From an uncultured virus (IMG/VR IMGVR_UViG_3300026408_000032) (taxonomy: Duplodnaviria; Heunggongvirae; Uroviricota; Caudoviricetes): a DNA stretch of 64,000 bases. Position 1 is the stretch's first letter. Each line of letters starts with the position of its first letter. Positions 1-62,359 of the stretch are shown here, piece after piece. The notes under the pieces were generated by a model. It ran no database searches and was not told the origin of the DNA. It worked only from the letters and a program-made list of their open reading frames with translations. A program made the position numbers and the translations under genes. The stretch lies in the IMG/VR virus record IMGVR_UViG_3300026408_000032. One strand, given 5' to 3'.

Positions 1-10
1 CTATTTGCTA

Positions 11-690
<680 letters not shown>

Positions 691-738
691 TCTAACCCAG
701 GTACAGGAGCACACCACTAGAGGGAGAGCAGGAAAACG

Positions 739-924
739 ATGACGGCCAAAATCGACATTGAAGTTGAGAAGGTGAAACTGGCAACTGCGGATCGGAAAGA
801 CCTTGAGCAGTTGGAACGCTCAAACCGACCGAAAGCCACGCCCAACATGCGTCAACGTCATGCGCTGGTAATTGCGGAACTGCATCGACGTGACCTTGTT
901 GAGCTTCAAAACTTCCATAAGTGA
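739..924 (+). CDS. Small hypothetical protein
   Basis: SD-like upstream sequence; overlaps the start of the next ORF. Confidence 0.55.
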   Translation: MTAKIDIEVEKVKLATADRKDLEQLERSNRPKATPNMRQRHALVIAELHRRDLVELQNFHK

Positions 925-1169
925 TGACCACCTTCGAGTTCGAGAGTTTCAGTAAGCTCGCCCACTACATCATAGCTGATAGGTGGATCACTGTTGTCTG
1001 CCGGGCGAACTGTAGAAACCGGAGGGTATTGGATTTGAGGATCTTCGACCCTGAGTTAACGGTCGCGGATTTGAGAAAGAAAACCTACCGCTGCACCATG
1101 TGCGGATCGACAAAGACAGAGTTGGTTGTTGAGGATGAGCGGGAGTGGCGGAAAAGGATTAAGCGATGA
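921..1169 (+). CDS. Small Zn-ribbon-like protein
   Basis: CxxxC..CxxC; overlapping start/stop with neighbours. Confidence 0.6.
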   Translation: MMTTFEFESFSKLAHYIIADRWITVVCRANCRNRRVLDLRIFDPELTVADLRKKTYRCTMCGSTKTELVVEDEREWRKRIKR

Positions 1170-1372
1170 ACTCTCTGGGCGAATACATAAAACGTGAAAT
1201 CGCGCAATCAGAATGGGATTCTGCAATGAGAGAGTTGCGCTCCATGTCGATCGAACAGCTTCGCGCCCTATGGGACAGCTTCGGTGAGGACAGTTTTTGC
1301 GGGGATTATGATTGCGTTCATGTTCACGCTGCCTTGAACGAGAAAGGCGATGGCGCGTACTGCGCTGTCTAA
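1166..1372 (+). CDS. Small hypothetical protein
   Basis: AAGGA SD; overlaps the upstream ORF end. Confidence 0.6.
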   Translation: MNSLGEYIKREIAQSEWDSAMRELRSMSIEQLRALWDSFGEDSFCGDYDCVHVHAALNEKGDGAYCAV

Positions 1373-1376
1373 TGAA

Positions 1377-1404
1377 AGGTTTTTACCGATCCCGGTAAAA
1401 ACCT
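1377..1404. other. Perfect 12-bp inverted repeat (terminator or operator)
   Basis: AGGTTTTTACCG-ATCC-CGGTAAAAACCT directly upstream of the tRNA-cluster promoter. Confidence 0.6.
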
Positions 1405-1408
1405 AAAA

Positions 1409-1437
1409 TTGACGAGTTGCGCAAATCACTTTAGAAA
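1409..1437 (+). promoter_or_regulatory. Putative sigma70 promoter of uORF/tRNA cluster
   Basis: TTGACG-N17-TAGAAA; predicted +1 at about 1444-1445, i.e. at the uORF ATG. Confidence 0.6.
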
Positions 1438-1444
1438 AGACCGC

Positions 1445-1498
1445 ATGAACCACAGACCTACACGACCGACGATGAGGCCGACACGCTTACCAGCGTGA
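1445..1498 (+). CDS. 17-aa leader peptide MNHRPTRPTMRPTRLPA
   Basis: ATG AAC CAC AGA CCT ACA CGA CCG ACG ATG AGG CCG ACA CGC TTA CCA GCG TGA; 12 of 16 elongator codons are Arg/Pro/Thr/Leu. Confidence 0.7.
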   Translation: MNHRPTRPTMRPTRLPA

Positions 1499-1515
1499 TC
1501 GGCTTATTGCGTTTT
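1475..1515 (+). terminator. Attenuator-like hairpin overlapping the uORF
   Basis: AGGCCGA-CACGCT/TACC/AGCGTG-A-TCGGCTT followed by ATTGCGTTTT. Confidence 0.6.
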
Positions 1516-1592
1516 CGGAGTGTAGCTCAGTCTGGCAGAGCGCGCGGTTTGGGACCGCGAAGCCGTTGGTTCAAATCCAGCCACTCCGACCA
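1516..1592 (+). tRNA. tRNA-Pro(TGG)
   Basis: CGGAGTG/CACTCCG acceptor, CGCGG-TTTGGGA-CCGCG anticodon arm, ACCA end. Confidence 0.95.
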
Positions 1593-1593
1593 T

Positions 1594-1670
1594 GCTTCCG
1601 TAGCTCCAACGGTAGAGCAGCCCTTTTGTAATGGGAAGGATGCGGGTTCGAATCCATGCCGGAAGCACCA
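1594..1670 (+). tRNA. tRNA-Thr(TGT), imperfect anticodon and T stems
   Basis: GCTTCCG/CGGAAGC acceptor, loop TTTGTAA, ACCA end. Confidence 0.85.
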
Positions 1671-1716
1671 CTCTTTAATTTTTCGAGCGATTTGTACAGC
1701 AAAGGCAAATCGATGT

Positions 1717-1793
1717 GGCCACGTAGCTCAATGGACAGAGCGCCGAGCTTCTACCTCGGGACCGTGTGGGTTCAAGTCCTACCGTGGTCGCCA
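1717..1793 (+). tRNA. tRNA-Arg(TCT)
   Basis: GGCCACG/CGTGGTC acceptor, CCGAG-CTTCTAC-CTCGG arm, A20, GCCA end. Confidence 0.93.
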
Positions 1794-1835
1794 ATGTTTC
1801 ACTCAAACCCTGCCGTTCAACGAGCGTTGAAAACT

Positions 1836-1913
1836 GCCCGTCTGGTGAAACTGGTAGACACGCCGAATTTAAACCTCGGAGATTTGCAGGTTCGACCCCT
1901 GCGACGGGCACCA
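1836..1913 (+). tRNA. tRNA-Leu(TAA) with short variable region
   Basis: GCCCGTC/GACGGGC acceptor, class II-type D-arm, loop TTTAAAC, ACCA end. Confidence 0.88.
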
Positions 1914-2105
1914 CAAACGCAAAAATTCCCCCCGCCACCGGCCCAGCGGAGGGGGACCGATGACGGGGGCTACCCAGCTAAGAGCGGAGCGGGGGTGCTG
2001 CTCTAGCGGGAATCTTGAGGTCACATTTTGTGACTTCAACTCATAGCTTTGGCACCACGAACAATAGCAGCACAAGACAGCCGGCGCCGATCATCGAATA
2101 CCGGA

Positions 2106-2471
2106 TCATTCGGTCTGCGAGTGCTTCATAAATTCTTGCACCCTGTCCGGGACGTGAACCCCGAGAGAGCTTGCGATTGCCAGCGCTATTGAGGTTAGCA
2201 GGAACAGGGCAGGCCAGAGGCGCTGCGCTCGTTCGAACCATTCCAGGACCGTCGAGAATGAGCTTTCTTCGTCCCGCTTCTGTTCGAGGACGATCAGCCG
2301 GTTGCCGTGGTCTTCCAGCTTCTCCCTCACCTGATCGAACGAGTCGTTCCCGTCCTCTAGCCTCTGTTCGATCCGTCCCGCTGTCCGGTTGAGGCCGTGC
2401 AGCATTCTCCCCTGCTCGCGCATTTGATCGAGCAAGATGCTCAAGGGGTCGATCTGGTATCCGTTCTGCAT
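2106..2471 (-). CDS. Coiled-coil protein with C-terminal TM (holin-like, lysis module)
   Basis: Hydrophobic C-terminal helix; last gene of the lysis cluster. Confidence 0.55.
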   Translation of the reverse strand: MQNGYQIDPLSILLDQMREQGRMLHGLNRTAGRIEQRLEDGNDSFDQVREKLEDHGNRLIVLEQKRDEESSFSTVLEWFERAQRLWPALFLLTSIALAIASSLGVHVPDRVQEFMKHSQTE

Positions 2472-2537
2472 CGCCCCTCAGCTCCAAAATTCCAGCGGTG
2501 ATGTCCGCAAATGAAGCCATGATCCCGTTTCCTCCCC

Positions 2538-2984
2538 TTACGGTAGCGAAAACCAGTTGGAAGATGACGCGGGTTTACGGGCAGGCTTTCGAGCAACCGT
2601 TTTCTTCGGAATAGCCCCCGTGGTGATCTTTGCGGGCTCTGGTTTGGCTTCGACCGCTTTCAATCGGCTATCGAGATTATGCTGTGCGGCGTCTAGCGTC
2701 TCGATATGCTGCGACATGGTTTTCATGTCGGAGCGGATCAGGCTTTCGCGTTCACTCAGCATACGGTTCGCTTCCGACTGTGTGACGTAGTTCGGAGCAT
2801 GTGACGCGCTAATCAGCGTGAACATCAGCCCCGAGGCGATCGCAACTCCAACAACAATAGTCGCCTTGGTTTTGAACGAGAGAGATTTCAGCCAAGCCCA
2901 TGCGGATTTGAGCCAACGCTTTACGACCGATTCCGCCTTCTCGACTTCGGCCTCTGCCGCTGCAATGATTTCGTCTTTGTTCAT
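2538..2984 (-). CDS. Membrane-anchored coiled-coil protein (lysis module)
   Basis: One TM, coiled coil, basic tail. Confidence 0.65.
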   Translation of the reverse strand: MNKDEIIAAAEAEVEKAESVVKRWLKSAWAWLKSLSFKTKATIVVGVAIASGLMFTLISASHAPNYVTQSEANRMLSERESLIRSDMKTMSQHIETLDAAQHNLDSRLKAVEAKPEPAKITTGAIPKKTVARKPARKPASSSNWFSLP

Positions 2985-2987
2985 CTC

Positions 2988-3299
2988 TTATCCCTTTTGT
3001 GCCGCTTTGAGCCCCGCTCTGCAGATGGCTCGATTGGAACGCATCGACTTGAACGCTTCTTTGTTGGTCTGGAGGTTCCGCGCCGCTTCGGATCGGCGCA
3101 CGTCGGAATCCGGAAGCTGTTGCCACACTGGGTCAGCAGACGTGCATTCACCCGGAACGCCCGCGAGTCCGGTTACAACGACCGGCGGATCACCACTGCA
3201 TCCGGCCAAAAGCAGGGCGAGCGGCGCGCAAAAAACCGTACCGGCGCGCAGAAACCGGCGGCGCGGCGCTTGGCGGCCGGGTTGGATGTGCCATTTCAT
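2988..3299 (-). CDS. o-spanin (Rz1-like lipoprotein)
   Basis: Lipobox LLLAGC; overlaps the end of the i-spanin candidate. Confidence 0.65.
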   Translation of the reverse strand: MKWHIQPGRQAPRRRFLRAGTVFCAPLALLLAGCSGDPPVVVTGLAGVPGECTSADPVWQQLPDSDVRRSEAARNLQTNKEAFKSMRSNRAICRAGLKAAQKG

Positions 3300-3631
3300 T
3301 GGTTGAGGCTCCGCGTCAGGGCGCGAGGATAGACAACGGGATCGTCCTTTAGCGCCTGCAATTGCGTTTCGAGATCGCGCACACGTTCGAGGGCGGCAAC
3401 CTTGTCGGCCTCGGCCTTTTCGCGCTCCACTTGAGCAGCCTTAGACGACCGCGCCGTGGCTTCGGTAGTCGCCTGATTGATCGCCTTCAGCCAAGAGGCG
3501 TCGTTGCTGGATTTGATCCACGAGACGACAAGTGTCGCGGTGCCGGTAACGAGCGCCATGACGACGCCGATTCCAATGGCGCTAGCCGCTATTTGACCGA
3601 CGCGGCCGACCAGCCAAGTCCAGATGATCAT
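3296..3631 (-). CDS. i-spanin (Rz-like)
   Basis: N-terminal TM plus coiled coil, directly after the endolysin. Confidence 0.65.
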   Translation of the reverse strand: MIIWTWLVGRVGQIAASAIGIGVVMALVTGTATLVVSWIKSSNDASWLKAINQATTEATARSSKAAQVEREKAEADKVAALERVRDLETQLQALKDDPVVYPRALTRSLNQ

Positions 3632-4506
3632 CAGACAGCCTCGCGTTCGATCAGGCCCTTGCGCTCGGCCCATGCGACGCAGGCTGCAACGACAACGACG
3701 GTTCCGGCCCAGAACATCGGATCAGCAGCGAGCCCGATGAGGAACATCCAAATGTCCAAGCCACGATCTGCCGAATAGGCGTGCTGTGCGGCTTGCGCCA
3801 CCTGAACTCCGATGATGGTATTGCCAGCAGCACCAGCGGTCCCGGCCGCTTGCCCCGTCGAAGTGCCCGCCGTCTTTGTTGGCGGCGGCACATCGGCCTT
3901 ACCCTGCGTTGCGCTCTGCTCGTCGGCATCCGGTAGAGGAGGCGCAAAGGCGACCGGAACGGCCGGTATATCACCAGCCATTTTGAGAGCTGCGGACTGC
4001 GTGCCCGATACCCGGGACAGCCAGCCCTTGCCGAAGCGCCAGAAGGTCTTCAGAGACTTGTAATAGGCCGTGCGGTACTGGCCCATTTTAACGACCACCT
4101 GAGCCGGGTCGCAGTTGACTAGGGCTCTCTCGGTAATCTCGCCCATGTGCCCGTCAGCGGCCACGCCAAGGGCAGACTGAAGGCATTTGATGCCCCGCTG
4201 TGGCCCGGCGTTGACGCCGAAGTCGAAGGTGATCAGATCCACGCCCGGAGGCAGGCGGTCGGCGTTGACCTCATCCCAATACTTGGTGCGGTAAATGTCG
4301 TCGCGCTCGGTCTTCAGGATGTTGCGGACGGACTGTTTCGGTAGTCCCTTTCGAAGCCGGTAGGCATCGTATTCTTTCTGGATGATGCCGTTCATCGTCG
4401 CGCCGCCGGGATCGTACGGATCGTTTGAGAATCCCCCTTCCCATTTGAGTGTTTCGGCAAGGCACGCCTGAAAGCGCGCCTCGGCATCTGCCGGTGCGTT
4501 GGTCAT
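3631..4506 (-). CDS. Endolysin, glycoside hydrolase family 108, with PG-binding domain and hydrophobic C-terminus
   Basis: WEGGFSNDPYDPGGAT, FDFGVNAG and FGKGWLSRV motifs. Confidence 0.92.
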   Translation of the reverse strand: MTNAPADAEARFQACLAETLKWEGGFSNDPYDPGGATMNGIIQKEYDAYRLRKGLPKQSVRNILKTERDDIYRTKYWDEVNADRLPPGVDLITFDFGVNAGPQRGIKCLQSALGVAADGHMGEITERALVNCDPAQVVVKMGQYRTAYYKSLKTFWRFGKGWLSRVSGTQSAALKMAGDIPAVPVAFAPPLPDADEQSATQGKADVPPPTKTAGTSTGQAAGTAGAAGNTIIGVQVAQAAQHAYSADRGLDIWMFLIGLAADPMFWAGTVVVVAACVAWAERKGLIEREAV

Positions 4507-16916: not shown

Positions 16917-17975
16917 CTAGGGCTTCATCACGAAGGTATTGGCGCTGGCGTTGAGATCGAACTTACCGTCTGTCCGGTAAAGCCGCATATTCGGCAGATC
17001 GAACTTCAACGTGCCCGCTGGATTCTGGATCAGCCCCGCCGTCACCGTTCCGAGGTTTGCGGTGATGGCCGACAGGGTGTTGGCGACGATCTTGTCGGCG
17101 GTAATCGTATCATCAACGATTAGGTTGCCATTGATGCCGACCGAGGCGACGCCGTTGACCAGTCCGGCAATGAACGCTTGGATCGTCGTGCCGTTGAGCG
17201 TCGGATGCACAATAACGAAGTGATCGGCGAGAATGGCAAATGTCGTCAGGTTGTCGAGGCCGGAATTGAGTTCAAGGCCAGTTACCCGGCCGTTGCTGTT
17301 GATCTTGACGCCCCACTTCGCCTGCACGCCGTTGATCGAGGTCGTCTGTTCTGTGACCGTTGTCGTCAGATCGTCGACCTGGCTTGTTACCGTCGAGATG
17401 TTCGTCGCATTGACGCCATCCCCGGCAACACGGGCGCTTGCTTCACTTGTGATCGCGGCATTGAGTGTGCTGTCGGCGGTCTGGTAATTCGTCTCAACCG
17501 TATCGATGCGATCCGACAAGCCACCATCGGCACTGGCCCTGGCCGTTGCTTCGCTCGATATGTTCGATTGCAGCGTGAAGTCGGCGGCCTGATAGTCGGA
17601 CTCGATATTATCAATCCGGGTCGTTAGCGCCCCGTCCGCACTGGCCCTGGCCGTTTGCTCGCTCTGGATTTGTGAAGTAAACGAGGCTTCAAGCAGATCA
17701 TCGGCCGACTGGTAGTTGGCCGAGATGGTATCGATCTGACTGGCAAGCGCCGCGTCTTCATCGGCCCTGACTGTCTGTTCCTGCTCGATCGCCGCGTTGA
17801 TCGTGTCGATGTTCGTCGCTTGCGCCGCCAGCTTCTTTGAATTGTCGTTGGTGATTTCGAGAAGCGGCTTGATCCACTTCCACCAGTTTGGAGTCCACCG
17901 CCTGTAGCGGTCGATAATCGGCTCAGATTGGCTCGGCAGCGCGATTTGAGGGACCGTGGTTGATCCGTCTGCCAT
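16917..17975 (-). CDS. Tail needle/tip-like coiled-coil protein with J-like (DUF1983-like) C-terminus
   Basis: Repeats of E..ARASADGAL..RID; W.VKI..NG.V.G..F.I.AD.F motif. Confidence 0.7.
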   Translation of the reverse strand: MADGSTTVPQIALPSQSEPIIDRYRRWTPNWWKWIKPLLEITNDNSKKLAAQATNIDTINAAIEQEQTVRADEDAALASQIDTISANYQSADDLLEASFTSQIQSEQTARASADGALTTRIDNIESDYQAADFTLQSNISSEATARASADGGLSDRIDTVETNYQTADSTLNAAITSEASARVAGDGVNATNISTVTSQVDDLTTTVTEQTTSINGVQAKWGVKINSNGRVTGLELNSGLDNLTTFAILADHFVIVHPTLNGTTIQAFIAGLVNGVASVGINGNLIVDDTITADKIVANTLSAITANLGTVTAGLIQNPAGTLKFDLPNMRLYRTDGKFDLNASANTFVMKP

Positions 17976-25936: not shown

Positions 25937-28033
25937 TTAGAACCCCGAGGCTTGCTGCGGCGGCGGATAAACCTGCCGGATGTTCGGCTGCTGCTGTGGG
26001 GCCTGTTGCGGTTGCACCGGCTGAGCCTGTGGCTGCGGCTGGCTTTGCGGAATGGACTGCGGCGGAAGCAACGTCGGCGTTTGAATGACGGTCGATGCTG
26101 CGGTCTGATCCGCCTTCGCATAGTTCAATGCCGCTTGCGCTTTGAGATTGTCGATCTCGGCGTTCGTCTTTTCGAGATCCTTGAGAACCTTTTCGAGCTG
26201 CGCCTGTGTGGCGGCCTGCTTCGCAGGATCGGGCTTCTGATCGCCCATCTTCTTGAGGATGCCCGCCTTGTTGTGCAGGCCGGACATCTCGATCCACTGT
26301 TCCGGCGTGAACTGGACCGCGCCTGTTTTGGCGAGATCAACCATCATACTGAACTGTTCCTGCTGGATATTTGCAGTGTCAGGAACGTCGTCAAGGATGA
26401 TGTCCATGCTCATATCAGCCGGGACATGCTCGGTGCGGACGGGTTGCCCAAGCTGCTGAGCGAACATCGGGTCCTGCTGCGCCCGAAGCCTCATTTGCTG
26501 CTGCGCTTGTTCCGGGTCGATGCCCTTGTCCGTGGCTTGGCTCAACAGGTCTTCCGCCAACGTCACAGGACGGTTGAGACCGACGAAACGCAGGTTGTTC
26601 TCGTCGTCCGTGACCCTGATCCACGTCTCGGCCGTCCAATACTGGCGGATCATGGCCCAGATCAGCTTATAAACACGGTGTTTGAAGTGCCGCTGGCGGT
26701 CCATCAGGATCGCGAGTTCGATCTGCCCGCCCTGTTGCGAGGCGAGAACGGCACGGCCGGAAGCGGATTGGTCCTGCTTGCCTGCGAGTGCCGCGTTCGG
26801 CCCCATCAGGTCGATTTCCGACTTCGCTTCGTTGGCAAGTTCGACGTTGCCAGCAAGCTGCGCCGTCGTATCAATCACCCCGAACGCATCCGGGACATTG
26901 CCCAGGTTGTTGATTTCGACATGGCCGTCGGCTTTGGATAGCTCGGCCTTCATATGATCGACGTCATCGATCGCGCCTTTGACGCTCCGGGTCTGCCGGT
27001 TCATCAACAGGTGCAAGGCTTTCGATCGGCGCTTGTTGATCTCGTCCTGAGGTCCGATCAACTGCCGGACAAAGCCATAGCGGTTGTTTTCGCGGTCAAC
27101 GAACCCCGACTGCAGGATCAACGGGCAAAGAGAAACCCCGTCATCATCCCGATAGGGGACTGCGCCTTCCTGAATCACGCCGCCCTTGGTGAAAATCGAC
27201 CAGTGCCAGTCCTTCTGGGCGCCAAAGCTGTAGTACATCTGCACAATGCGAACGCGCTTGCGCTTTCCACCTGAGGCCCATGCTTTCCATGCAGGGCGGT
27301 CGGAATAGGTCTTATAGGCGTCCTCGGAGATCGTGTGCGCGATGATCTCCTGCGCATCGGGGTACATTGCCAAGGCTTCGTCTTCGTCCATCCAGACGAC
27401 GAGGCCCTTGTAGCGTGCATCCTCAAAATCATGTTCGCGGGAATGGGGATCGTAGAACGTGCGGTCCCAGTGCGCCTGGCCGACGCTGATATCCCACTTG
27501 TTCGGGTCTTTTGAGTTGCGCTCGACCTTGGGCTCAACGCCGCCGTAGCCCTCGACCAGCATGTTGTCCCAGACCTGGGAGAACCGTTGCGTGATGTCGG
27601 CCTTGTCACCGACGAAGCGGAGAGCATCCGAGCAGGCATCAGCGGCGGCTTCATCGTTGGGCGTGCGGGGAAAGCCTCGCGGCTGCGTTCTCTGTGTCGC
27701 CTCATACCCCATCAAGTATTGGTGCTTGGACTTGATGCGGTTGATGATGATGGCTGGCTGGCCGCGCTTCTCCAGGGCTTTGAGTTCGGCGGCGGTGAAC
27801 TGCTTGTTGTCGACGTAATCCCGGTCCCGTTCCGATAGGGAACGGCTATCGATCGTCGCTTCCTCGGAGTCTTCAAACCACTGGACGAGCGTGGAGTGCG
27901 CAATCGGGGCCTGGTAGGCTGGTTCTTCCGGCTCGATGGTCTGACCGCCAGCGTAATCTCCCGCTGCCATCTGGGCAAGCGTACCCGGCTGCTGCCCCTG
28001 TGCGGGCAGCATCGCATTCGGATCAATGGCCAT
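25937..28033 (-). CDS. Portal protein (P22-type)
   Basis: RGQP..INRI, YG.VR.L.GPQ.E.NKR.S, SG.A...Q..G motifs; follows terL. Confidence 0.92.
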   Translation of the reverse strand: MAIDPNAMLPAQGQQPGTLAQMAAGDYAGGQTIEPEEPAYQAPIAHSTLVQWFEDSEEATIDSRSLSERDRDYVDNKQFTAAELKALEKRGQPAIIINRIKSKHQYLMGYEATQRTQPRGFPRTPNDEAAADACSDALRFVGDKADITQRFSQVWDNMLVEGYGGVEPKVERNSKDPNKWDISVGQAHWDRTFYDPHSREHDFEDARYKGLVVWMDEDEALAMYPDAQEIIAHTISEDAYKTYSDRPAWKAWASGGKRKRVRIVQMYYSFGAQKDWHWSIFTKGGVIQEGAVPYRDDDGVSLCPLILQSGFVDRENNRYGFVRQLIGPQDEINKRRSKALHLLMNRQTRSVKGAIDDVDHMKAELSKADGHVEINNLGNVPDAFGVIDTTAQLAGNVELANEAKSEIDLMGPNAALAGKQDQSASGRAVLASQQGGQIELAILMDRQRHFKHRVYKLIWAMIRQYWTAETWIRVTDDENNLRFVGLNRPVTLAEDLLSQATDKGIDPEQAQQQMRLRAQQDPMFAQQLGQPVRTEHVPADMSMDIILDDVPDTANIQQEQFSMMVDLAKTGAVQFTPEQWIEMSGLHNKAGILKKMGDQKPDPAKQAATQAQLEKVLKDLEKTNAEIDNLKAQAALNYAKADQTAASTVIQTPTLLPPQSIPQSQPQPQAQPVQPQQAPQQQPNIRQVYPPPQQASGF

Positions 28034-28040
28034 TGAGGGG

Positions 28041-29471
28041 TTACCCGACTTTCCAGTTGGAAGTTGGTCCGTCACGATCGGCAAAGGCTTTGGCCCAGCC
28101 GTCCGTCTTTACCTTCGTGACTTGCTTGGGTGGACTGTAATGGATGATCGATGGGAACAGATTAGTCAGCGCCCACACAAGCGCATCCACACGGTCGCCG
28201 GTCGTGGTCTTGCCTCGATCGCCGGGGTTGATACCAAACGGAGTGAAAACCACCATTTGATCCTCAAGCGCCGGGAATGAGCCGACGTGAGAAACCCTGC
28301 CTTGCGCATAGAGCGCCGCAATCGGTTCGGCGCGTGTCACCTTACCACGCGAGGCATGAACTGTTAGAACCGGCGCATTCGGGCGAACGGACCGAATGAC
28401 GGCCTCCACCATGTCGCCGCCCTGGTTGCGTTCGGCCACGATCGCGTCGCCGTCAAATTCGTCATAGGCTGCGATTGCGCGCGTTGCCCAGCCATGCGGG
28501 TCCATCGCACACGTAACATCAGCCAGAACATATCCGCGCCCGTCAACGCCAATGCCGGCAACCACGATGCCTGTTTCGGCGCCGCCGTCACTGTCGCCTG
28601 ATCCGCCCCACGACGCCGCTGGGTCAATGGCGATGATGACCCGTTGCATATCGGGCAGGTGCCCGCCCTTGGCGATGCGCCTGGCGTCAATGTCGGCCCG
28701 CTTCCAGAGCGCGTCTGGCGCGTCATCCAGAATTTCCGCATCGATCTCTTGCCGACCCAGCCTTGTGCCGGCATAGCGGGCCTCGATCTTGCTGATGAAT
28801 GAGGGTGCGAGATTGGCCCTGTTCTCGTTCATCGACCCGCGTGTCACGACCGTCCGCGGATCGGCCACTATGTCCTTTAATGCCTTTATTGGCCGCGGCG
28901 TGGTCGTCACGATCTGCCGGGGATCATCCCCTAAGCGAAGACCGAACTGAAGATTGTCCCACGTCTCCTGAGCATAGGCCCATTTTGCGAGCTCATCGGA
29001 CCACGCCGCGTCGTGTTGCGGGCCTCGGAGCTGATCCGGCTCAACCGCATTGTAAAGCGTTGCAACGGCCCCGTTGGGCCATGTCACACGCCGCTTGGAC
29101 GGCTCATAATGCGGGCGAAAGTCTTTTGGGTGGACCGATAACAGGCCGCTGTCGCCTTCCACCATAACATCACGACAGTCAGCCGCCGTCTCGCCAACGA
29201 GGGCAATGCGCTTTATGGTTCCGGGCGCCATTGGCGTTGCCCCGCAGACCAGTGACCTGATCCACTCAGCACCACACCGGGTCTTGCCGAAACCACGGCC
29301 GGCAAGGATCAGCCACGTCGCCCAATCACCCGCCGGAGCAAACTGTTTCGGACGCCCCCAGAATGACCAGTTGAATAGGAGTTCTTCTCTTTCGTCGGCT
29401 GGCATCGCTTCGATGATCGCTCTGCGTTCCATCTCCGGAAGCAAAGCGAACCGCTCAGCCCGCGACAGCAA
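28041..29471 (-). CDS. terL: Terminase large subunit
   Basis: AGRGFGKT Walker A, LRGPQ..WSDE Walker B, IAIDPA, DRVDA. Confidence 0.96.
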   Translation of the reverse strand: MLSRAERFALLPEMERRAIIEAMPADEREELLFNWSFWGRPKQFAPAGDWATWLILAGRGFGKTRCGAEWIRSLVCGATPMAPGTIKRIALVGETAADCRDVMVEGDSGLLSVHPKDFRPHYEPSKRRVTWPNGAVATLYNAVEPDQLRGPQHDAAWSDELAKWAYAQETWDNLQFGLRLGDDPRQIVTTTPRPIKALKDIVADPRTVVTRGSMNENRANLAPSFISKIEARYAGTRLGRQEIDAEILDDAPDALWKRADIDARRIAKGGHLPDMQRVIIAIDPAASWGGSGDSDGGAETGIVVAGIGVDGRGYVLADVTCAMDPHGWATRAIAAYDEFDGDAIVAERNQGGDMVEAVIRSVRPNAPVLTVHASRGKVTRAEPIAALYAQGRVSHVGSFPALEDQMVVFTPFGINPGDRGKTTTGDRVDALVWALTNLFPSIIHYSPPKQVTKVKTDGWAKAFADRDGPTSNWKVG

Positions 29472-41679: not shown

Positions 41680-42091
41680 GGAGGGCTGCGACGGATGTCG
41701 CGGACTGAGGGCAGATACTCCGAGAGCGCCTAGGCCGAAGCCGTGGTCTCAGATTAATCACCTTGGCTGCTTGGCTACCCGACCTAACCCCCGGTGATAG
41801 GGATGCGGACCCGCGCAGCACTCCATCTTGCCCCCAGACCGAGAGACCCGGCCGCTACTCACGCAACAAACGCCGATCGCTTCAGCTCAATTACCGGCAT
41901 GAAAGTCTCCCGGTTTCCCGAGATAGGCCCCACCAGCTTGACGCCGCTCCCCAGCGACGCATTGAACGTGTCCCGGCCTGCAATCGACTAAGGCCGTGCG
42001 CAGTGGGGCCGCATGAAATGGAAGACCCCTTCGAAAAACCGAACGCGCCTCCACGTAAACTTTGTTTACAAATACTCGCCCCGGTGATTGC

Positions 42092-42340
42092 TTAGGCGGC
42101 ATGCACACTTTGTACCCGCCGCTGCATCCTCGACCGTTTTCTCAACGCGGCCAAAAGGTCAGTTGTAACGCCTTCTATTTTTCTTTGCCGCGCACCGTTA
42201 ACAACAGACGGCCAATAGTCGGATGGAATAGAATTGCGTTGCCGCATACCTTTGGCCGTGTTCTCGGGCACGCCGATATCAACCGCGAAATCGGAAAGCC
42301 GAGGCCAAGCCATGATGATTTGACGATGGGTTTCGAACAT
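42092..42340 (-). CDS. Cro-like HTH protein, probably leaderless
   Basis: II.AWP....FA.DIGV....A..M..RNSIP..YW; divergent from cI. Confidence 0.85.
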   Translation of the reverse strand: MFETHRQIIMAWPRLSDFAVDIGVPENTAKGMRQRNSIPSDYWPSVVNGARQRKIEGVTTDLLAALRKRSRMQRRVQSVHAA

Positions 42341-42347
42341 GTTGCTA

Positions 42348-42393
42348 ACGGTACAAAAAGTACCTCTTGCTGTCAAGGGGCACATATCGTACC
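42348..42393. promoter_or_regulatory. pR-like promoter with two operators
   Basis: Minus strand TTGACA (42376-42371) N17 TACCGT; operators GGTACAAAAAGTACC 42350-42364 and GGCACATATCGTACC 42379-42393. Confidence 0.8.
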
Positions 42394-42406
42394 CTGGAAG
42401 GGTGCA

Positions 42407-43195
42407 ATGAAGATGGCAACCAAACGATCTGTTGCCGAGCGGAAGAAACAGAATGATGACGCACGGCGGAAGGAAGTCGGCCGTCGCCTGCGCATATTGA
42501 GAAAGGCAAAGTTTCCCAACCCCGAGTTGGCGTTTGAAGTGCTACAACAAGCCGGATTTCAGCGGGGGTTGGATTCCTACAAAGCCTACGAGAAGGGCGC
42601 GCGAAAAATACCGTCGGACGAGGCCAGACTCGCCCTGCAGGTATTCGAATCGCCAGACGGCTCTTTCGATTGGCTGTTCTTGGGCGATGAGGAACCAGAG
42701 TGGGGAAGTCAGACGCAACGTTTAGCAGCGCGCCCGAGTTTACTTATGCTGCCGCGGCTGACTGCCGGAGAGGCTGTCATGATACCATCAGCGTTCGAAG
42801 CGGTGAAAGAGAAAGCCAAAAAAGAAAACAGACTGCACCCGGTTGTATCGCGTCCGGGTCATGAGATAGGCCCCAAAGCCTACCTCATGCCTATTGATGA
42901 CGACAGCATGATTCCAAACACGCCTTTCGAGGAGCGGCGTTTCTTACCAGGTGATGACGTGCTCATTGACCCCGACGTAAAGCCGAGGCCTGGAGACTTC
43001 GTTGCGGCGCATCTCAAATCGGAAGATACCGCTGTTTTTCGGAGGTGGCAGGAATCGGACGGCAGATTAGATGCGGAAAAACACTTCGTTTTGAAGCCGC
43101 TAAACGCAAGCTATCGTACGGAAGTCGTCAATCCAAAGACTAACCCTGCCCGGGTTATCGGCTGTATGATCCAGCACATAAGCTATCGCCGTTAG
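42407..43195 (+). CDS. cI: CI-like repressor (HTH plus S24 peptidase domain)
   Basis: RLR.LR..YKAYEKG.R HTH; TAG, DSM.P, GD.VLIDP, PGDFV.A, L.PLN.SY. Confidence 0.9.
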   Translation: MKMATKRSVAERKKQNDDARRKEVGRRLRILRKAKFPNPELAFEVLQQAGFQRGLDSYKAYEKGARKIPSDEARLALQVFESPDGSFDWLFLGDEEPEWGSQTQRLAARPSLLMLPRLTAGEAVMIPSAFEAVKEKAKKENRLHPVVSRPGHEIGPKAYLMPIDDDSMIPNTPFEERRFLPGDDVLIDPDVKPRPGDFVAAHLKSEDTAVFRRWQESDGRLDAEKHFVLKPLNASYRTEVVNPKTNPARVIGCMIQHISYRR

Positions 43196-53750: not shown

Positions 53751-54152
53751 ATGGCCTTGTTTCGTACATTCGAGGAAGCGGTGGAGGCGATCTATCCGCC
53801 TGACCGCAGACCGCGTGTGCGTACCCTGCGTGAAAGAATGGCGGCCGTGCAATGCGTCGTCTACGACGGCCGTGAGTGCTATACCACCGACGCTCTGATC
53901 GAAAAATTCAAGGCTCAGCTATGCAAGGCTACCGCTCCAAGCTCAAACCAGTTAAGCGGCGCAAGAAAACGAAGGAAGGGGCCGAAACGTATTGGGTCGC
54001 GCGTGGCTTCATTCCAGTTCGAAGACGAGACGGCACTTTCGCCCGAAGACGAATTGAACGCAGCCTTGGAGGCCACACGGCTAAGGAAAGGCAAGCCGAA
54101 GTCGATAAGCTCAACCAAGCCTTTGAAGATGCTGCCCAGAACATCAGTCTGA
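53751..54152 (+). CDS. Putative excisionase, overlapping the integrase 5' end
   Basis: Short HTH-like N-terminus directly upstream of int. Confidence 0.5.
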   Translation: MALFRTFEEAVEAIYPPDRRPRVRTLRERMAAVQCVVYDGRECYTTDALIEKFKAQLCKATAPSSNQLSGARKRRKGPKRIGSRVASFQFEDETALSPEDELNAALEATRLRKGKPKSISSTKPLKMLPRTSV

Positions 54153-55096
54153 CGTTTGCGAAGGCGTACAACAATTATATCGGCGTCGGTAAAGAAGTGC
54201 CGATGCTAGGCGAACAGATCCTTCACGAACTCGGCGTCCGCCAGTGCATTGAGATTGACGATAGCGTAATGCTTGCGGCGAAGGCTGTTATTTTCAAAGC
54301 CGACGCTAAGCCTTCCTATATCAACCGCCACCTCTACACGCCTGTTCATGCCATCCTGAAGATGGCGCTCAAGGAAGCGACGCCTCAGTTGACGCGGCCG
54401 GAGGGTCACAAGGACTCGCCAGAAATTCAAATCCCGGATCAGAACTGGTTCCGCGTTGTCGGGCAGCAAATGGGGATCGACACCCGCGCCCTGGTTTACT
54501 TCCTGACGATCCACGGCCGCCGTCTCGGGGATGCCCTCGGACGCATCCCAGACAACTTCGACCCGACGGCCGGGACGCTAATGATCGGCAAGACCAAGAC
54601 GGGCAAGCCGCTATTCATCGATCTGCATCCGACCGTGGTCGAGGCGTTCAAGCTGATGCCGGACTGGCAGAAGCGCCGCTGGCTGTTCAGAGACGGACCC
54701 AACTCCGGCAACAACGTCCGGAAGGACATTCTCGTCGCGGTGCTAAAGGCCAACGGCTTCGACCCAAAAGACTTCCAGCGCAAGGTGAAGGGGCGGCCGC
54801 CGCAGATCGATGAGGCGAAGGCCCGCGACTACATCCGCGAGCACGGCTCGGTGCCCTACTTCGGAACACATGCCATCGGGCGGCATTCAGCGGCGACGCG
54901 AGCTTTGCTCGCCGGGTACAGCCTGCTCCACGTGCAGAAGATGTACGGCTGGGACACCATCGAAATGCTCTCGCGCCGCTATGGTCACTTGGCGAAGGCT
55001 GAGACGAATGCGGCAGTGCACAAGGTTGCAGATGCGTTCATTGAACAAATTGAAAACAAATCAAAGAAGGAAAGCGGCGAACGCGATGGATATTAG
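53921..55096 (+). CDS. int: Tyrosine integrase
   Basis: G.R.GD (R), KTKTG (K), HAIGRH, GW, RRY.H; near attR. Confidence 0.92.
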   Translation: MQGYRSKLKPVKRRKKTKEGAETYWVARGFIPVRRRDGTFARRRIERSLGGHTAKERQAEVDKLNQAFEDAAQNISLTFAKAYNNYIGVGKEVPMLGEQILHELGVRQCIEIDDSVMLAAKAVIFKADAKPSYINRHLYTPVHAILKMALKEATPQLTRPEGHKDSPEIQIPDQNWFRVVGQQMGIDTRALVYFLTIHGRRLGDALGRIPDNFDPTAGTLMIGKTKTGKPLFIDLHPTVVEAFKLMPDWQKRRWLFRDGPNSGNNVRKDILVAVLKANGFDPKDFQRKVKGRPPQIDEAKARDYIREHGSVPYFGTHAIGRHSAATRALLAGYSLLHVQKMYGWDTIEMLSRRYGHLAKAETNAAVHKVADAFIEQIENKSKKESGERDGY

Positions 55097-61801: not shown

Positions 61802-62359
61802 ATGAAACAGGCACGAACACTCACCGACGCACGGCACGCGCAGGCGCTCAAAGCACTAGACCATCCACGAGACCGGCTCATGTACCTACTCAGTGCACGA
61901 GCTGGCCTTCGAGCTGTCGAGATTGCAGGACTCAAGTGGGACCGCATCGACTTCGACGAGAGAGTGCTTCGTTTGAAGACCACGAAGGGCAGGAAGCCAC
62001 GAGCTGTTCCGATTGCCTCGGAGGTCTTCGACGCTCTGAAGCAATACGAAAAGCACTCTGGTCGCCATAGGTCCGGTCTCGTCTTCGTGAACACGCACAG
62101 CCGCCCAGGGCAACCACTGACGCCCAACAGTATCGCTGCATGGTTCCGCGACCTCTACACGCGACGTCTCGGCTGGGACGGCTATTCGAGTCACTCAGGA
62201 CGGCGCACATTCTGCACGAAGGTCGCTCGCAAGATCACTGAAGCTGGAGGGTCGCTCAAAGACGTCCAGGCACTCATGGGCCACGAGAGCCTTCAGACGA
62301 CCTCGCGCTACATCGACACCGATCCCGAAGCACAACGCAGAGTGGTCGATTTGATTTAA
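61802..62359 (+). CDS. Tyrosine recombinase, catalytic domain only
   Basis: AGLRA.E, TKG, HSGRRT, MGH, RY. Confidence 0.93.
   Translation: MKQARTLTDARHAQALKALDHPRDRLMYLLSARAGLRAVEIAGLKWDRIDFDERVLRLKTTKGRKPRAVPIASEVFDALKQYEKHSGRHRSGLVFVNTHSRPGQPLTPNSIAAWFRDLYTRRLGWDGYSSHSGRRTFCTKVARKITEAGGSLKDVQALMGHESLQTTSRYIDTDPEAQRRVVDLI

Follow-up and report, generated by a model that had tools for sequence, protein, structure and literature searches.

In the classical leader-peptide attenuators of bacteria, such as trpL, hisL, thrL, and the pheM leader of pheST, a short reading frame rich in the codons of the sensed amino acid is followed by a hairpin and a run of U's ahead of the regulated genes, which are biosynthetic or synthetase genes. 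These leaders also contain a pause hairpin and an antiterminator that is mutually exclusive with the terminator. The coupling attenuators of enterobacterial pyrBI and pyrE have a different arrangement, in which the leader ORF is translated up to or into the terminator hairpin, the position of the ribosome relative to the polymerase decides the outcome, no antiterminator is involved, and regulation depends on UTP-sensitive pausing of the polymerase. The pheL leader (PMC3082878) is a further attenuator of the classical type. The trpL leader (rnTrpL) of S. meliloti encodes a leaderless 14-aa leader peptide, senses Trp, and controls trpE(G); its 5′ end has been mapped and attenuation demonstrated, providing a precedent for a leaderless leader peptide in Rhizobiales (PMC7298713). 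For whiB7 (wblC) of Actinobacteria, antitermination is believed to result from ribosome stalling on an upstream ORF (uORF); the system is activated when tRNA or synthetase genes are knocked down, and the uORF coding sequence decides which amino-acid starvation is sensed (PMC10274678). Phage tRNA clusters have been associated with codon compensation and with escape from tRNA-cleaving defenses, and four published accounts address the function of the tRNAs rather than any control of their production by a leader peptide (PMC10264068, PMC11464382, PMC11555353, and PMC10865867). An earlier sequence-only reading of the locus described below had stated that no leader-peptide attenuator is known for a phage tRNA cluster, and full-text literature searches likewise found none.

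The locus lies in a 64,000-nt stretch of DNA from an uncultured member of the Caudoviricetes (IMG/VR record IMGVR_UViG_3300026408_000032), referred to here as the window. PHROGs matches in the window included endolysin, tail, portal, terminase, repressor, and integrase, and the carrier is a temperate phage, about 55 kb in size, whose host carries an alphaproteobacterial-type tRNA-Arg(CCG). Positions 1166 to 1913 (+ strand) comprise an optional cassette of 748 bp containing an ORF of 68 aa, a leader, and four tRNA genes. Alignment with a related prophage (L006) showed that the cassette is missing there, the preceding 82-aa gene (94% identity) being followed directly by sequence corresponding to position 1914 onward of the window. 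A metagenome contig (L008) carried the cassette on a different backbone, with 100% identity across positions 1373 to 1913 and only 49% likeness downstream of 2011, and a contig of soil run X3 branched at position 1162 into a cassette-less form. The cassette is thus polymorphic in presence and absence among related phages. It is also dispensable, since none of 22 endolysin-related viral loci had a tRNA within 6 kb. Positions 1166 to 1913 are a self-contained accessory tRNA cassette (“moron”) in a soil prophage, with boundaries shown by alignment, and the solid result of this analysis is a 748-bp mobile cassette with four rare-codon tRNAs that is exchanged among related soil prophages together with a promoter-like site of its own.

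The first gene of the cassette, a Cys/His-rich 68-aa ORF (1166 to 1372, + strand), begins within the stop of the 82-aa gene (ATGA overlap). Four homologues (P0001 to P0004) shared 72 to 88% identity with it, and PHROG and Pfam searches of its product returned zero matches. The AF2 model of the protein was helical and confident (pLDDT, 85), and a PDB fold search with this model yielded zero matches at an E value of ≤0.001.

Searches for diverged copies of the cassette covered several collections. Exact-pattern searches of viral contigs for the Pro/Thr junction, the Thr anticodon arm, and the D arm plus anticodon of the UAA tRNA recovered only the window's own record; the 68-aa ORF and its homologue alignment, compared with the same contigs, returned the own record plus one 11-residue match without a tRNA; and the 82-aa gene returned the own record and L006. 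The 82-aa gene and the alignment of the 68-aa ORF found nothing among genome contigs, and the alignment found L008 only among metagenome contigs. When compared by BLAST with phage records and plasmids, the region produced only generic tRNA-level matches. A diverged cassette was found in none of the viral, genome, and metagenome contigs searched, and the leader was identical in every copy compared (the window, L008, and contigs from three of four soil RNA runs).

The cassette was present in libraries recorded as soil metatranscriptomes: 23 of the 24 listed runs were recorded as RNA, and 20 of the 24 held at least a fifth of the sampled words, with the full set of words in runs X1 to X6. The four runs compared (X3, X12, X14, and X17 of the 24 listed) were represented by assembled contigs, which lack starts, ends, and strand, and these contigs had zero leader differences where the leader was covered. 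DNA carry-over in the RNA libraries is possible, because flanking “silent” DNA was also covered. Contig cover broke at 1457 to 1469 and at 1628 to 1650, breaks that are not interpretable.

The sequence-only reading had placed four tRNA genes (Pro, Thr, Arg, and Leu) behind the leader, all on the + strand, and Rfam found all four above its gathering score, with three of them also predicted by ARAGORN. These are tRNA-Pro (UGG) at 1516 to 1592 (Rfam, 65.0 bits), tRNA-Arg (UCU) at 1717 to 1793 (58.4 bits), a tRNA with a UAA (Leu) anticodon at 1836 to 1913 (50.5 bits), which ends the cassette and takes its boundary from the alignment with L006, and tRNA-Thr (UGU) at 1594 to 1670, which was missed by ARAGORN and matched RF00005 over 1594 to 1667 (45.5 bits; gathering score, 29). 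The tRNA-Thr has two non-standard pairs in its anticodon stem and an extra base in its T stem. At only 78 nt, the UAA tRNA has a short variable region and lacks a long variable arm. As in other phage tRNA clusters, the set is small, serves codons that are rare at high GC, and sits on accessory DNA; two of the four tRNAs have unusual anticodon stems. The cognate codons are infrequent in the genes of the phage (AGA, 4.9; ACA, 10.6; TTA, 2.5; and CCA, 9.8 per 1,000; 14,434 codons), and the four tRNAs would read these A-ending codons, which are rare in the phage's own genes. Position −1 is T in all four tRNAs. RNase P prefers a T at −1, and the genes in this respect fit ordinary RNase P substrates.

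Ahead of the tRNAs, the letters of a promoter-like site were confirmed as previously read, with TTGACG at 1409 to 1414, a 17-nt spacer, and TAGAAA at 1432 to 1437 (1409 to 1437, + strand). Seven bases (AGACCGC) separate TAGAAA from an ATG at 1445, which places that ATG near the predicted +1, and the reported lack of a Shine-Dalgarno sequence also held, with no AGGAGG-like motif ahead of the ATG. Sites of equal quality, defined as a first hexamer matching at ≥5 of 6 positions, a second at ≥4 of 6, and a spacer of 16 to 18 nt, occurred seven times in 128 kb (both strands). A stricter consensus promoter scan omitted the 1409-to-1437 site, the last −10 base of which is A, and listed instead TTTACC-16-TAAAAT at 1382 to 1409. 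Transcription of the tRNAs most likely starts from the 1409-to-1437 site, probably supplemented by read-through from a small upstream operon on the + strand.

Between the stop of the 68-aa ORF and the −35-like hexamer, a repeat search identified a perfect 12-bp inverted repeat (AGGTTTTTACCG / CGGTAAAAACCT) at 1377 to 1404, with 4 nt between the arms and no strand assigned. Folding of 1368 to 1412 gave −17.4 kcal/mol (z = −6.05; 0 of 500 shuffles equal). Downstream of the promoter-like site, three related 9-mers, AGACCTACA, CGACCGACG, and AGGCCGACA, start at 1454, 1463, and 1475. These direct repeats and the inverted copy that forms the leader hairpin could be DNA targets of a protein that regulates the tRNA promoter, and the palindrome just upstream of the −35-like hexamer might act with them. 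The core G[AG]CC[GT]AC, however, occurred 43 times in the window (both strands), and no candidate binding protein was identified. Triples of 9-mers equally alike at the same offsets were found at 45 of 127,940 window positions and are therefore not rare enough to need a function, and such protein-binding sites are given only a very slim chance.

The leader itself contains a long imperfect hairpin (1467 to 1511, + strand; core, 1475 to 1505; loop, UACC). The hairpin that had been proposed at 1475 to 1505 was recovered in a fold of 1440 to 1520 (ΔG, −26.6; z = −3.9; 0 of 200 shuffles equal), and a separate fold of 1445 to 1515 (−24.0 kcal/mol; z = −5.2 to −5.4) extended the stem to 1467 to 1511, with about 20 pairs. 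Its sequence was unique in the window at ≤3 mismatches. A hairpin before each tRNA was considered and rejected: those in the other inter-tRNA spacers were not significant (z = −0.7 and −0.3), and the leader hairpin is therefore not just a feature that precedes every tRNA here. The U-rich run that had been described, TTATTGCGTTTT (1504 to 1515, + strand), is partly paired in the extended stem and ends at the base preceding tRNA-Pro. The run is interrupted and below consensus and failed the terminator rule, and the consensus scan listed no + strand terminator here; the 1504-to-1515 tail passed a relaxed scan, which yielded 53 candidates over 128 kb. An Rfam scan of positions 1 to 3000 at an E value of ≤1 returned only tRNA matches and antisense look-alikes, with no T-box or other cis-regulatory RNA, and assigned the leader to no family.

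Within this leader, a putative uORF of 17 codons without a Shine-Dalgarno motif (1445 to 1498, + strand) encodes MNHRPTRPTMRPTRLPA followed by a stop. Its codons are ATG AAC CAC AGA CCT ACA CGA CCG ACG ATG AGG CCG ACA CGC TTA CCA GCG TGA, of which codons 8 to 17 and the TGA lie within 1467 to 1511; the claim that the stop falls inside the hairpin proved correct, the TGA being in the 3′ arm. The further claim that the frame is written in the tRNAs' own codons was borne out by the counts: 12 of the 16 elongator codons specify Arg, Pro, Thr, or Leu, each of the four exact cognates occurs, and the four tRNAs could read 9 of the 16 (cognate plus G-wobble). The three 9-mers form Arg-Pro-Thr units in this frame, differing only at 9-mer positions 1, 3, 6, and 9, and all of these differences are synonymous.

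The abundance of such codon matches was assessed against two backgrounds. Six-frame reading of the window gave 83,023 open 16-codon windows, of which 64 contained all four cognates, 54 had ≥9 decodable codons, and 153 had ≥12 Arg/Pro/Thr/Leu codons, and the match corresponds to a frequency of 0.05 to 0.08% of window frames. Across all six frames of the 64-kb window, only one further site (17057 to 17107, − strand) shared with the uORF the combination of all four cognates and ≥9 decodable codons. Against 20,000 dinucleotide shuffles of 1438 to 1515, with any frame allowed, all four cognates occurred in 4.8%, ≥9 decodable codons in 2.0%, both together in 0.33%, and an ATG-started frame holding all four cognates in 0.66%. 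The composition of the leader thus explains part of the match, since 4.8% of shuffles that keep this composition hold all four cognates, and the match is unusual, not overwhelming, at 0.3 to 0.7% of local shuffles. The statistic was chosen after the sequence had been seen, from a scan of very many windows. Arguments from codon coincidence have their limits, as this match, at the level of 10^-3 to 10^-2 per locus, is about the chance yield of scanning thousands of tRNA clusters.

These features had led to the proposal of a ribosome-mediated attenuator, in which slowing of ribosomes on AGA/AGG, ACA/ACG, CCN, and TTA codons of a leaderless uORF would cover the 5′ arm of the hairpin and allow read-through into the tRNAs only if their isoacceptors were scarce or cleaved. 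The promoter-like site with an ATG at the expected +1, the codon match at 0.3 to 0.7% of local shuffles, the purely synonymous differences between the repeated units, and a hairpin (z, about −5) that holds codons 8 to 17 and the stop and is adjoined by a U-rich run are all consistent with this proposal. So are the leaderless leader peptide documented for S. meliloti trpL (PMC7298713), which the present locus resembles in that the transcript is predicted to begin at the ATG in an alphaproteobacterial setting, and the whiB7 uORF, where stalling is reported to relieve termination and to respond to knock-down of tRNA or synthetase genes (PMC10274678). The likeness to both is partial. The 5′ end is mapped for trpL versus only predicted here, and whiB7 concerns a transcription factor behind a longer leader with alternative structures that is conserved across species, whereas the genes in question here are tRNAs and the copies identical.

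The likeness to the classical attenuators is also incomplete. The order of short codon-rich frame, hairpin, and U's is the same, but the regulated genes would be the tRNAs themselves, the leader is only about 70 nt long, its stop codon falls within the terminator-like hairpin, half of the regulatory codons come too early for a ribosome stalled on them to matter, and there is neither a pause hairpin nor a mutually exclusive antiterminator. In prefix folds, the best structure ahead of the hairpin reached −3.4 kcal/mol and no competing second structure formed, and constrained folds revealed no alternative helix using the 5′ arm of the hairpin. Polymerase would need only 61 to 70 nt to reach the terminator, a distance over which presumably nothing would delay it long enough for a 70S ribosome to start on the 5′ AUG.

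The proposed masking of the 5′ arm was modeled by constrained folds that assume a ribosome footprint, and it held for one part of the uORF: with the A site at about codons 9 to 18 the hairpin was removed, but with the A site at codons 2 to 7 it was left intact. The only AGA (codon 4), the CCT (codon 5), and the first ACA (codon 6) sit where a stalled ribosome spares the hairpin, and only TTA (codon 15) and later codons are in the masking zone. A shortage of tRNA-Arg (UCU), tRNA-Pro (UGG), or tRNA-Thr (UGU) would therefore cause a first stall that favors termination, a sign opposite to that of the proposed sensor. In replete cells, moreover, a ribosome at the TGA would also cover the 3′ arm, making terminator formation questionable. 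In these models, the geometry of hairpin and uORF leans partly against the proposed sensor, as do the interrupted U-tract (TTATTGCGTTTT), which failed the terminator rule, the post hoc statistic drawn from very many windows, and the absence of comparative support, all copies compared being identical. Attenuation in the proposed form is accordingly considered unlikely. The broader function attached to it, by which the cassette would sense the supply of its own isoacceptors, with uORF ribosomes deciding whether the hairpin stops transcription or traps the precursor and with replacement tRNAs made on demand, for example after the action of anticodon nucleases, is held to be similarly improbable. 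If true, it would place a feedback sensor of tRNA supply on the tRNA genes, bring a new class of targets under leader-peptide attenuation, and bear on how phages answer tRNA-cleaving defenses and codon mismatch.

The same geometry can be read with the opposite sign. As in pyrBI and pyrE, the uORF runs into the hairpin (codons 8 to 17 and the TGA, as letters only) and stops in its 3′ arm, and early stalls spare the hairpin while later ribosome positions remove it in the constrained folds. A ribosome keeping pace with the polymerase might then melt the hairpin, and read-through would require efficient decoding of the rare codons, a positive feedback by the tRNAs and the reverse of relief by stalling. 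The identity of all copies compared, the lack of an upstream U-rich pause region (no U-run or hairpin was found in 1445 to 1466 that could serve as one), and the doubtful benefit to the phage make such coupling highly improbable.

The leader could alternatively act as RNA, either as a processing or stability element (a helix cut by a double-strand RNase, or transient pairing with the 5′ half of tRNA-Pro) or by releasing a small RNA. In shape, with an unpaired A/C-rich 5′ end ahead of a hairpin and U's, the leader resembles bacterial small RNAs, and the extended stem (1467 to 1511) of about 20 pairs also favors a role as RNA. Positions 1452 to 1463 are complementary to tRNA-Pro positions 1520 to 1531 at 10 of 12 bases, a match count reached by 0.84% of shuffles, and the minimum free energy of 1445 to 1592 under nearest-neighbor rules favored leader-tRNA pairing (−59.8) over hairpin plus cloverleaf (−55.9). 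The energy test was not significant, however: 5.6% of shuffled 5′ flanks folded equally well and 5.7% gave ≥6 leader-tRNA pairs, and such energy models ignore tRNA tertiary folding. Sequestration of tRNA-Pro by the leader was rejected as unsupported (match count, P of about 0.008; energy, P of about 0.056), as was a small RNA with a phage target, for which the best non-self duplex between the 5′ part of the leader and both strands of the window scored −30.6, against −27.3 to −33.0 in 20 shuffles. The leader also had no Rfam family at an E value of ≤1. A role as RNA is improbable on this evidence, and somewhat more so than attenuation by stalling.

The preferred reading, which falls slightly short of an even chance, is an ordinary tRNA moron with its own promoter, in which the 5′ leader is structured and the uORF fortuitous. 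Transcription from the 1409-to-1437 site would give the precursor about 71 nt of 5′ leader, folded into the long hairpin with U's behind it, and this leader would be removed by RNase P at U(−1)/C(+1). The hairpin would act constitutively, as a leaky intrinsic terminator limiting the yield of tRNA or as a structure for protection or processing of the 5′ end, and the 17-codon frame would be a chance product of an A/C-rich, CGAC-repetitive leader without a role of its own. Counting against a fortuitous uORF are the joint codon coincidence (0.66% and 0.33% of local shuffles), the ATG at the predicted +1, the synonymous differences between the Arg-Pro-Thr units, and the stop inside the hairpin. Translation of the uORF, or control of the tRNAs by it, is possible as judged from the letters and is proposed as a candidate only.

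Downstream of the last tRNA, the consensus scan identified a terminator-like GC-rich hairpin with a T-run (1928 to 1953, − strand) that was kept in L006 and L008. This hairpin, which cassette-less relatives have as well, closes the convergent lysis-side genes, and it probably also ends the tRNA transcript.

Inspection of the sequence and annotation of tRNA genes confirmed the arrangement described in the sequence-only reading, namely a promoter-like site, a short upstream open reading frame (uORF), a hairpin, and four tRNA genes beginning at 1516. On the plus strand, TTGACG (1409 to 1414) and TAGAAA (1432 to 1437) were separated by a 17-nt spacer and followed seven bases later by the ATG at 1445, in exact agreement with the earlier description, as was the 17-codon frame (ATG AAC CAC AGA CCT ACA CGA CCG ACG ATG AGG CCG ACA CGC TTA CCA GCG TGA), which encodes MNHRPTRPTMRPTRLPA before its stop; inspection likewise revealed no Shine-Dalgarno-like motif ahead of this ATG. 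ARAGORN predicted three of the tRNAs, Pro-TGG (from 1516, plus strand), Arg-TCT, and Leu-TAA (1836 to 1913, plus strand), and Rfam added Thr-TGT (1594 to 1667, plus strand; 45.5 bits versus a gathering score of 29), which ARAGORN had missed. The tRNA-Thr(UGU) gene (1594 to 1670) contained two non-standard anticodon-stem pairs and an extra T-stem base. Bacterial tRNA-Leu as a rule carries a long variable arm; the UAA tRNA measured just 78 nt, its anticodon stem was closed by an A-C mismatch, and its variable region was short, which makes its charging identity uncertain.

A consensus scan reported neither the TTGACG-N17-TAGAAA promoter nor a plus-strand terminator at the leader, giving instead TTTACC-16-TAAAAT at 1382 to 1409 and a minus-strand terminator at 1953 to 1928. 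Sites of equal promoter-like quality numbered 7 in 128 kb, both strands counted. Between the stop of a 68-amino-acid ORF and the -35-like hexamer, two 12-bp arms formed a perfect inverted repeat around a 4-nt center (1377 to 1404; z of -6 when folded as RNA), a candidate insulating hairpin or operator. The leader hairpin proved to be real, with folds of -26.6 kcal/mol for 1440 to 1520 (z, -3.9) and -24.0 for 1445 to 1515 (z, -5.2), and its stem could be extended to 1467 to 1511, so that part of the run previously described as U-rich pairs with upstream GAUGAG. Hairpins folded from the inter-tRNA spacers elsewhere in the cassette were not significant, and the leader matched no Rfam family. That the leader serves as a protein operator was considered very improbable.

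The match between uORF codons and the four tRNAs was compared with every open 16-codon window over the six frames of the whole sequence, 83,023 in total. AGA, ACA, TTA, and CCA occurred together in 64 of these, at least 9 codons decodable by the four tRNAs in 54, and at least 12 Arg, Pro, Thr, or Leu codons in 153; only the uORF and 17057 to 17107 (minus strand) combined all four cognates with at least 9 decodable codons. Among 20,000 dinucleotide shuffles of 1438 to 1515, all four cognates fell within one open window in 4.8%, both properties were found in 0.33%, and an ATG-started frame held all four cognates in 0.66%, the match being partly eased because the leader is A/C rich. The three Arg-Pro-Thr units (AGACCTACA, CGACCGACG, and AGGCCGACA; 1454 to 1483) differed only at 9-mer positions 1, 3, 6, and 9, all synonymously in the uORF frame, and 45 equally similar triples with the same offsets were found in 127,940 positions. 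From the shuffle and window counts, the codon coincidence is therefore real at roughly 10^-3 to 10^-2 per locus, as a post hoc statistic drawn from very many scanned windows. The phage's genes themselves used the cognate codons rarely (AGA, 4.9; ACA, 10.6; TTA, 2.5; CCA, 9.8 per 1,000; 14,434 codons).

The interpretation previously placed on this arrangement, a sensor of tRNA supply in which ribosomes stalling on cognate codons mask the hairpin and allow read-through, faces geometric objections and is judged unlikely. In constrained folds, the ribosome was assumed to cover the RNA from 18 nt on the 5' side to 11 nt on the 3' side of the first A-site base; on this assumption the hairpin stayed intact with the ribosome at codons 2 to 7, was progressively lost from codon 8, and was completely lost from about codon 12. 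The model fits the second half of the frame only (AGG, CCG, ACA, TTA, and CCA); the sole AGA (codon 4), CCT (codon 5), and first ACA (codon 6) lie within the intact-hairpin zone, so a stall there would favor termination. A ribosome at TGA would cover the 3' arm of the hairpin too, leaving it unclear when termination would occur in replete cells. Polymerase passes the site after only about 61 to 70 nt, and nothing would seem to restrain it until a ribosome starts; in prefix folds the best structure preceding the hairpin reached -3.4 kcal/mol, and thus neither a pause hairpin nor an antiterminator was found upstream. Two precedents nonetheless favor such a sensor, namely a leaderless leader peptide in the Rhizobiales, trpL of Sinorhizobium meliloti (PMC7298713), and the stalling described for the whiB7 uORF in response to tRNA and synthetase depletion (PMC10274678). 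A full-text literature search returned no published case of leader-peptide control of tRNA genes.

RNA-level processing or sequestration by the leader was rated somewhat less likely than the sensor, and a coupling attenuator of opposite sign was given very little credence. Leader positions 1452 to 1463 (uORF codons 3 to 6) are complementary at 10 of 12 bases to 1520 to 1531 of tRNA-Pro (bases 5 to 16), and by the nearest-neighbor minimum free energy of the precursor, leader-tRNA pairing was preferred to the cloverleaf by 3.9 kcal/mol. In 5.6% of trials, however, flanks that had been shuffled did equally well. As a small RNA, the leader had no outstanding target within the window. The reading favored here, at a little under an even chance, is an ordinary accessory tRNA cassette with its own promoter, in which the hairpin would act as a leaky terminator or protective element in a structured tRNA 5' leader and the uORF would be fortuitous. 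The probability left over from these five readings was assigned to no named one.

Comparison with related contigs indicated that 1166 to 1913 (the 68-amino-acid ORF, leader, and four tRNAs) is a 748-bp presence/absence cassette. A related viral contig without it (L006) kept the neighboring 82-amino-acid gene (94% identity), carried 9 other bases where the cassette would stand (1255 to 1275 of that contig), and then joined the window sequence from 1914 onward. A metagenome contig with the cassette (L008, 3001 to 3750) was identical over 1242 to 1927, including 1373 to 1913 at 100%, with flanks at 95 to 98% identity and only 49% likeness past 2011; an identical cassette on so different a backbone suggests recent exchange between phages. 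In soil sequencing run X3, the contig branched at 1162 into a form without the cassette, and none of 22 endolysin-related viral loci had a tRNA within 6 kb. The leader was identical in every copy compared, leaving no substitution pattern to read. The 68-amino-acid ORF matched no family or fold and had four homologues at 72 to 88% identity, so diverged cassettes probably exist; their DNA was not found in the viral, genome, and metagenome contigs scanned.

Among the 24 runs listed, 23 are recorded as RNA libraries, and 20 of the 24 contained at least one-fifth of the words sampled. Cover was examined as assembled contigs from four of the runs, which carry no starts, ends, or strand and covered adjacent DNA too. 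In X3 (on record as RNA), a contig over the cassette and downstream genes (1133 to 2500) had a mean word depth of 330, versus 93 in the contig immediately upstream. Since contig depths cannot rank genes, this does no more than hint at greater abundance on the cassette side.

PHROGs matches showed a temperate phage of about 55 kb within the window, with an endolysin (3631 to 4506, minus strand) and tail genes, a portal (25937 to 28084) and terminase, a repressor (42062 to 43195), and an integrase (53876 to 55096). A second integrase-like ORF (61802 to 62359) matched its profile only in the C-terminal part. Past 56 kb, GC content fell to 50 to 55%, a possible sign of another mobile element or a remnant adjoining the prophage. 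At the left edge, tRNA-Arg(CCG) (47 to 123) shared 98.8% identity with Paracoccus replicon copies in a plasmid collection, versus 88 to 94% with other alphaproteobacterial copies, which hints at the host lineage. L006 carried a tRNA-Met at the corresponding offset.
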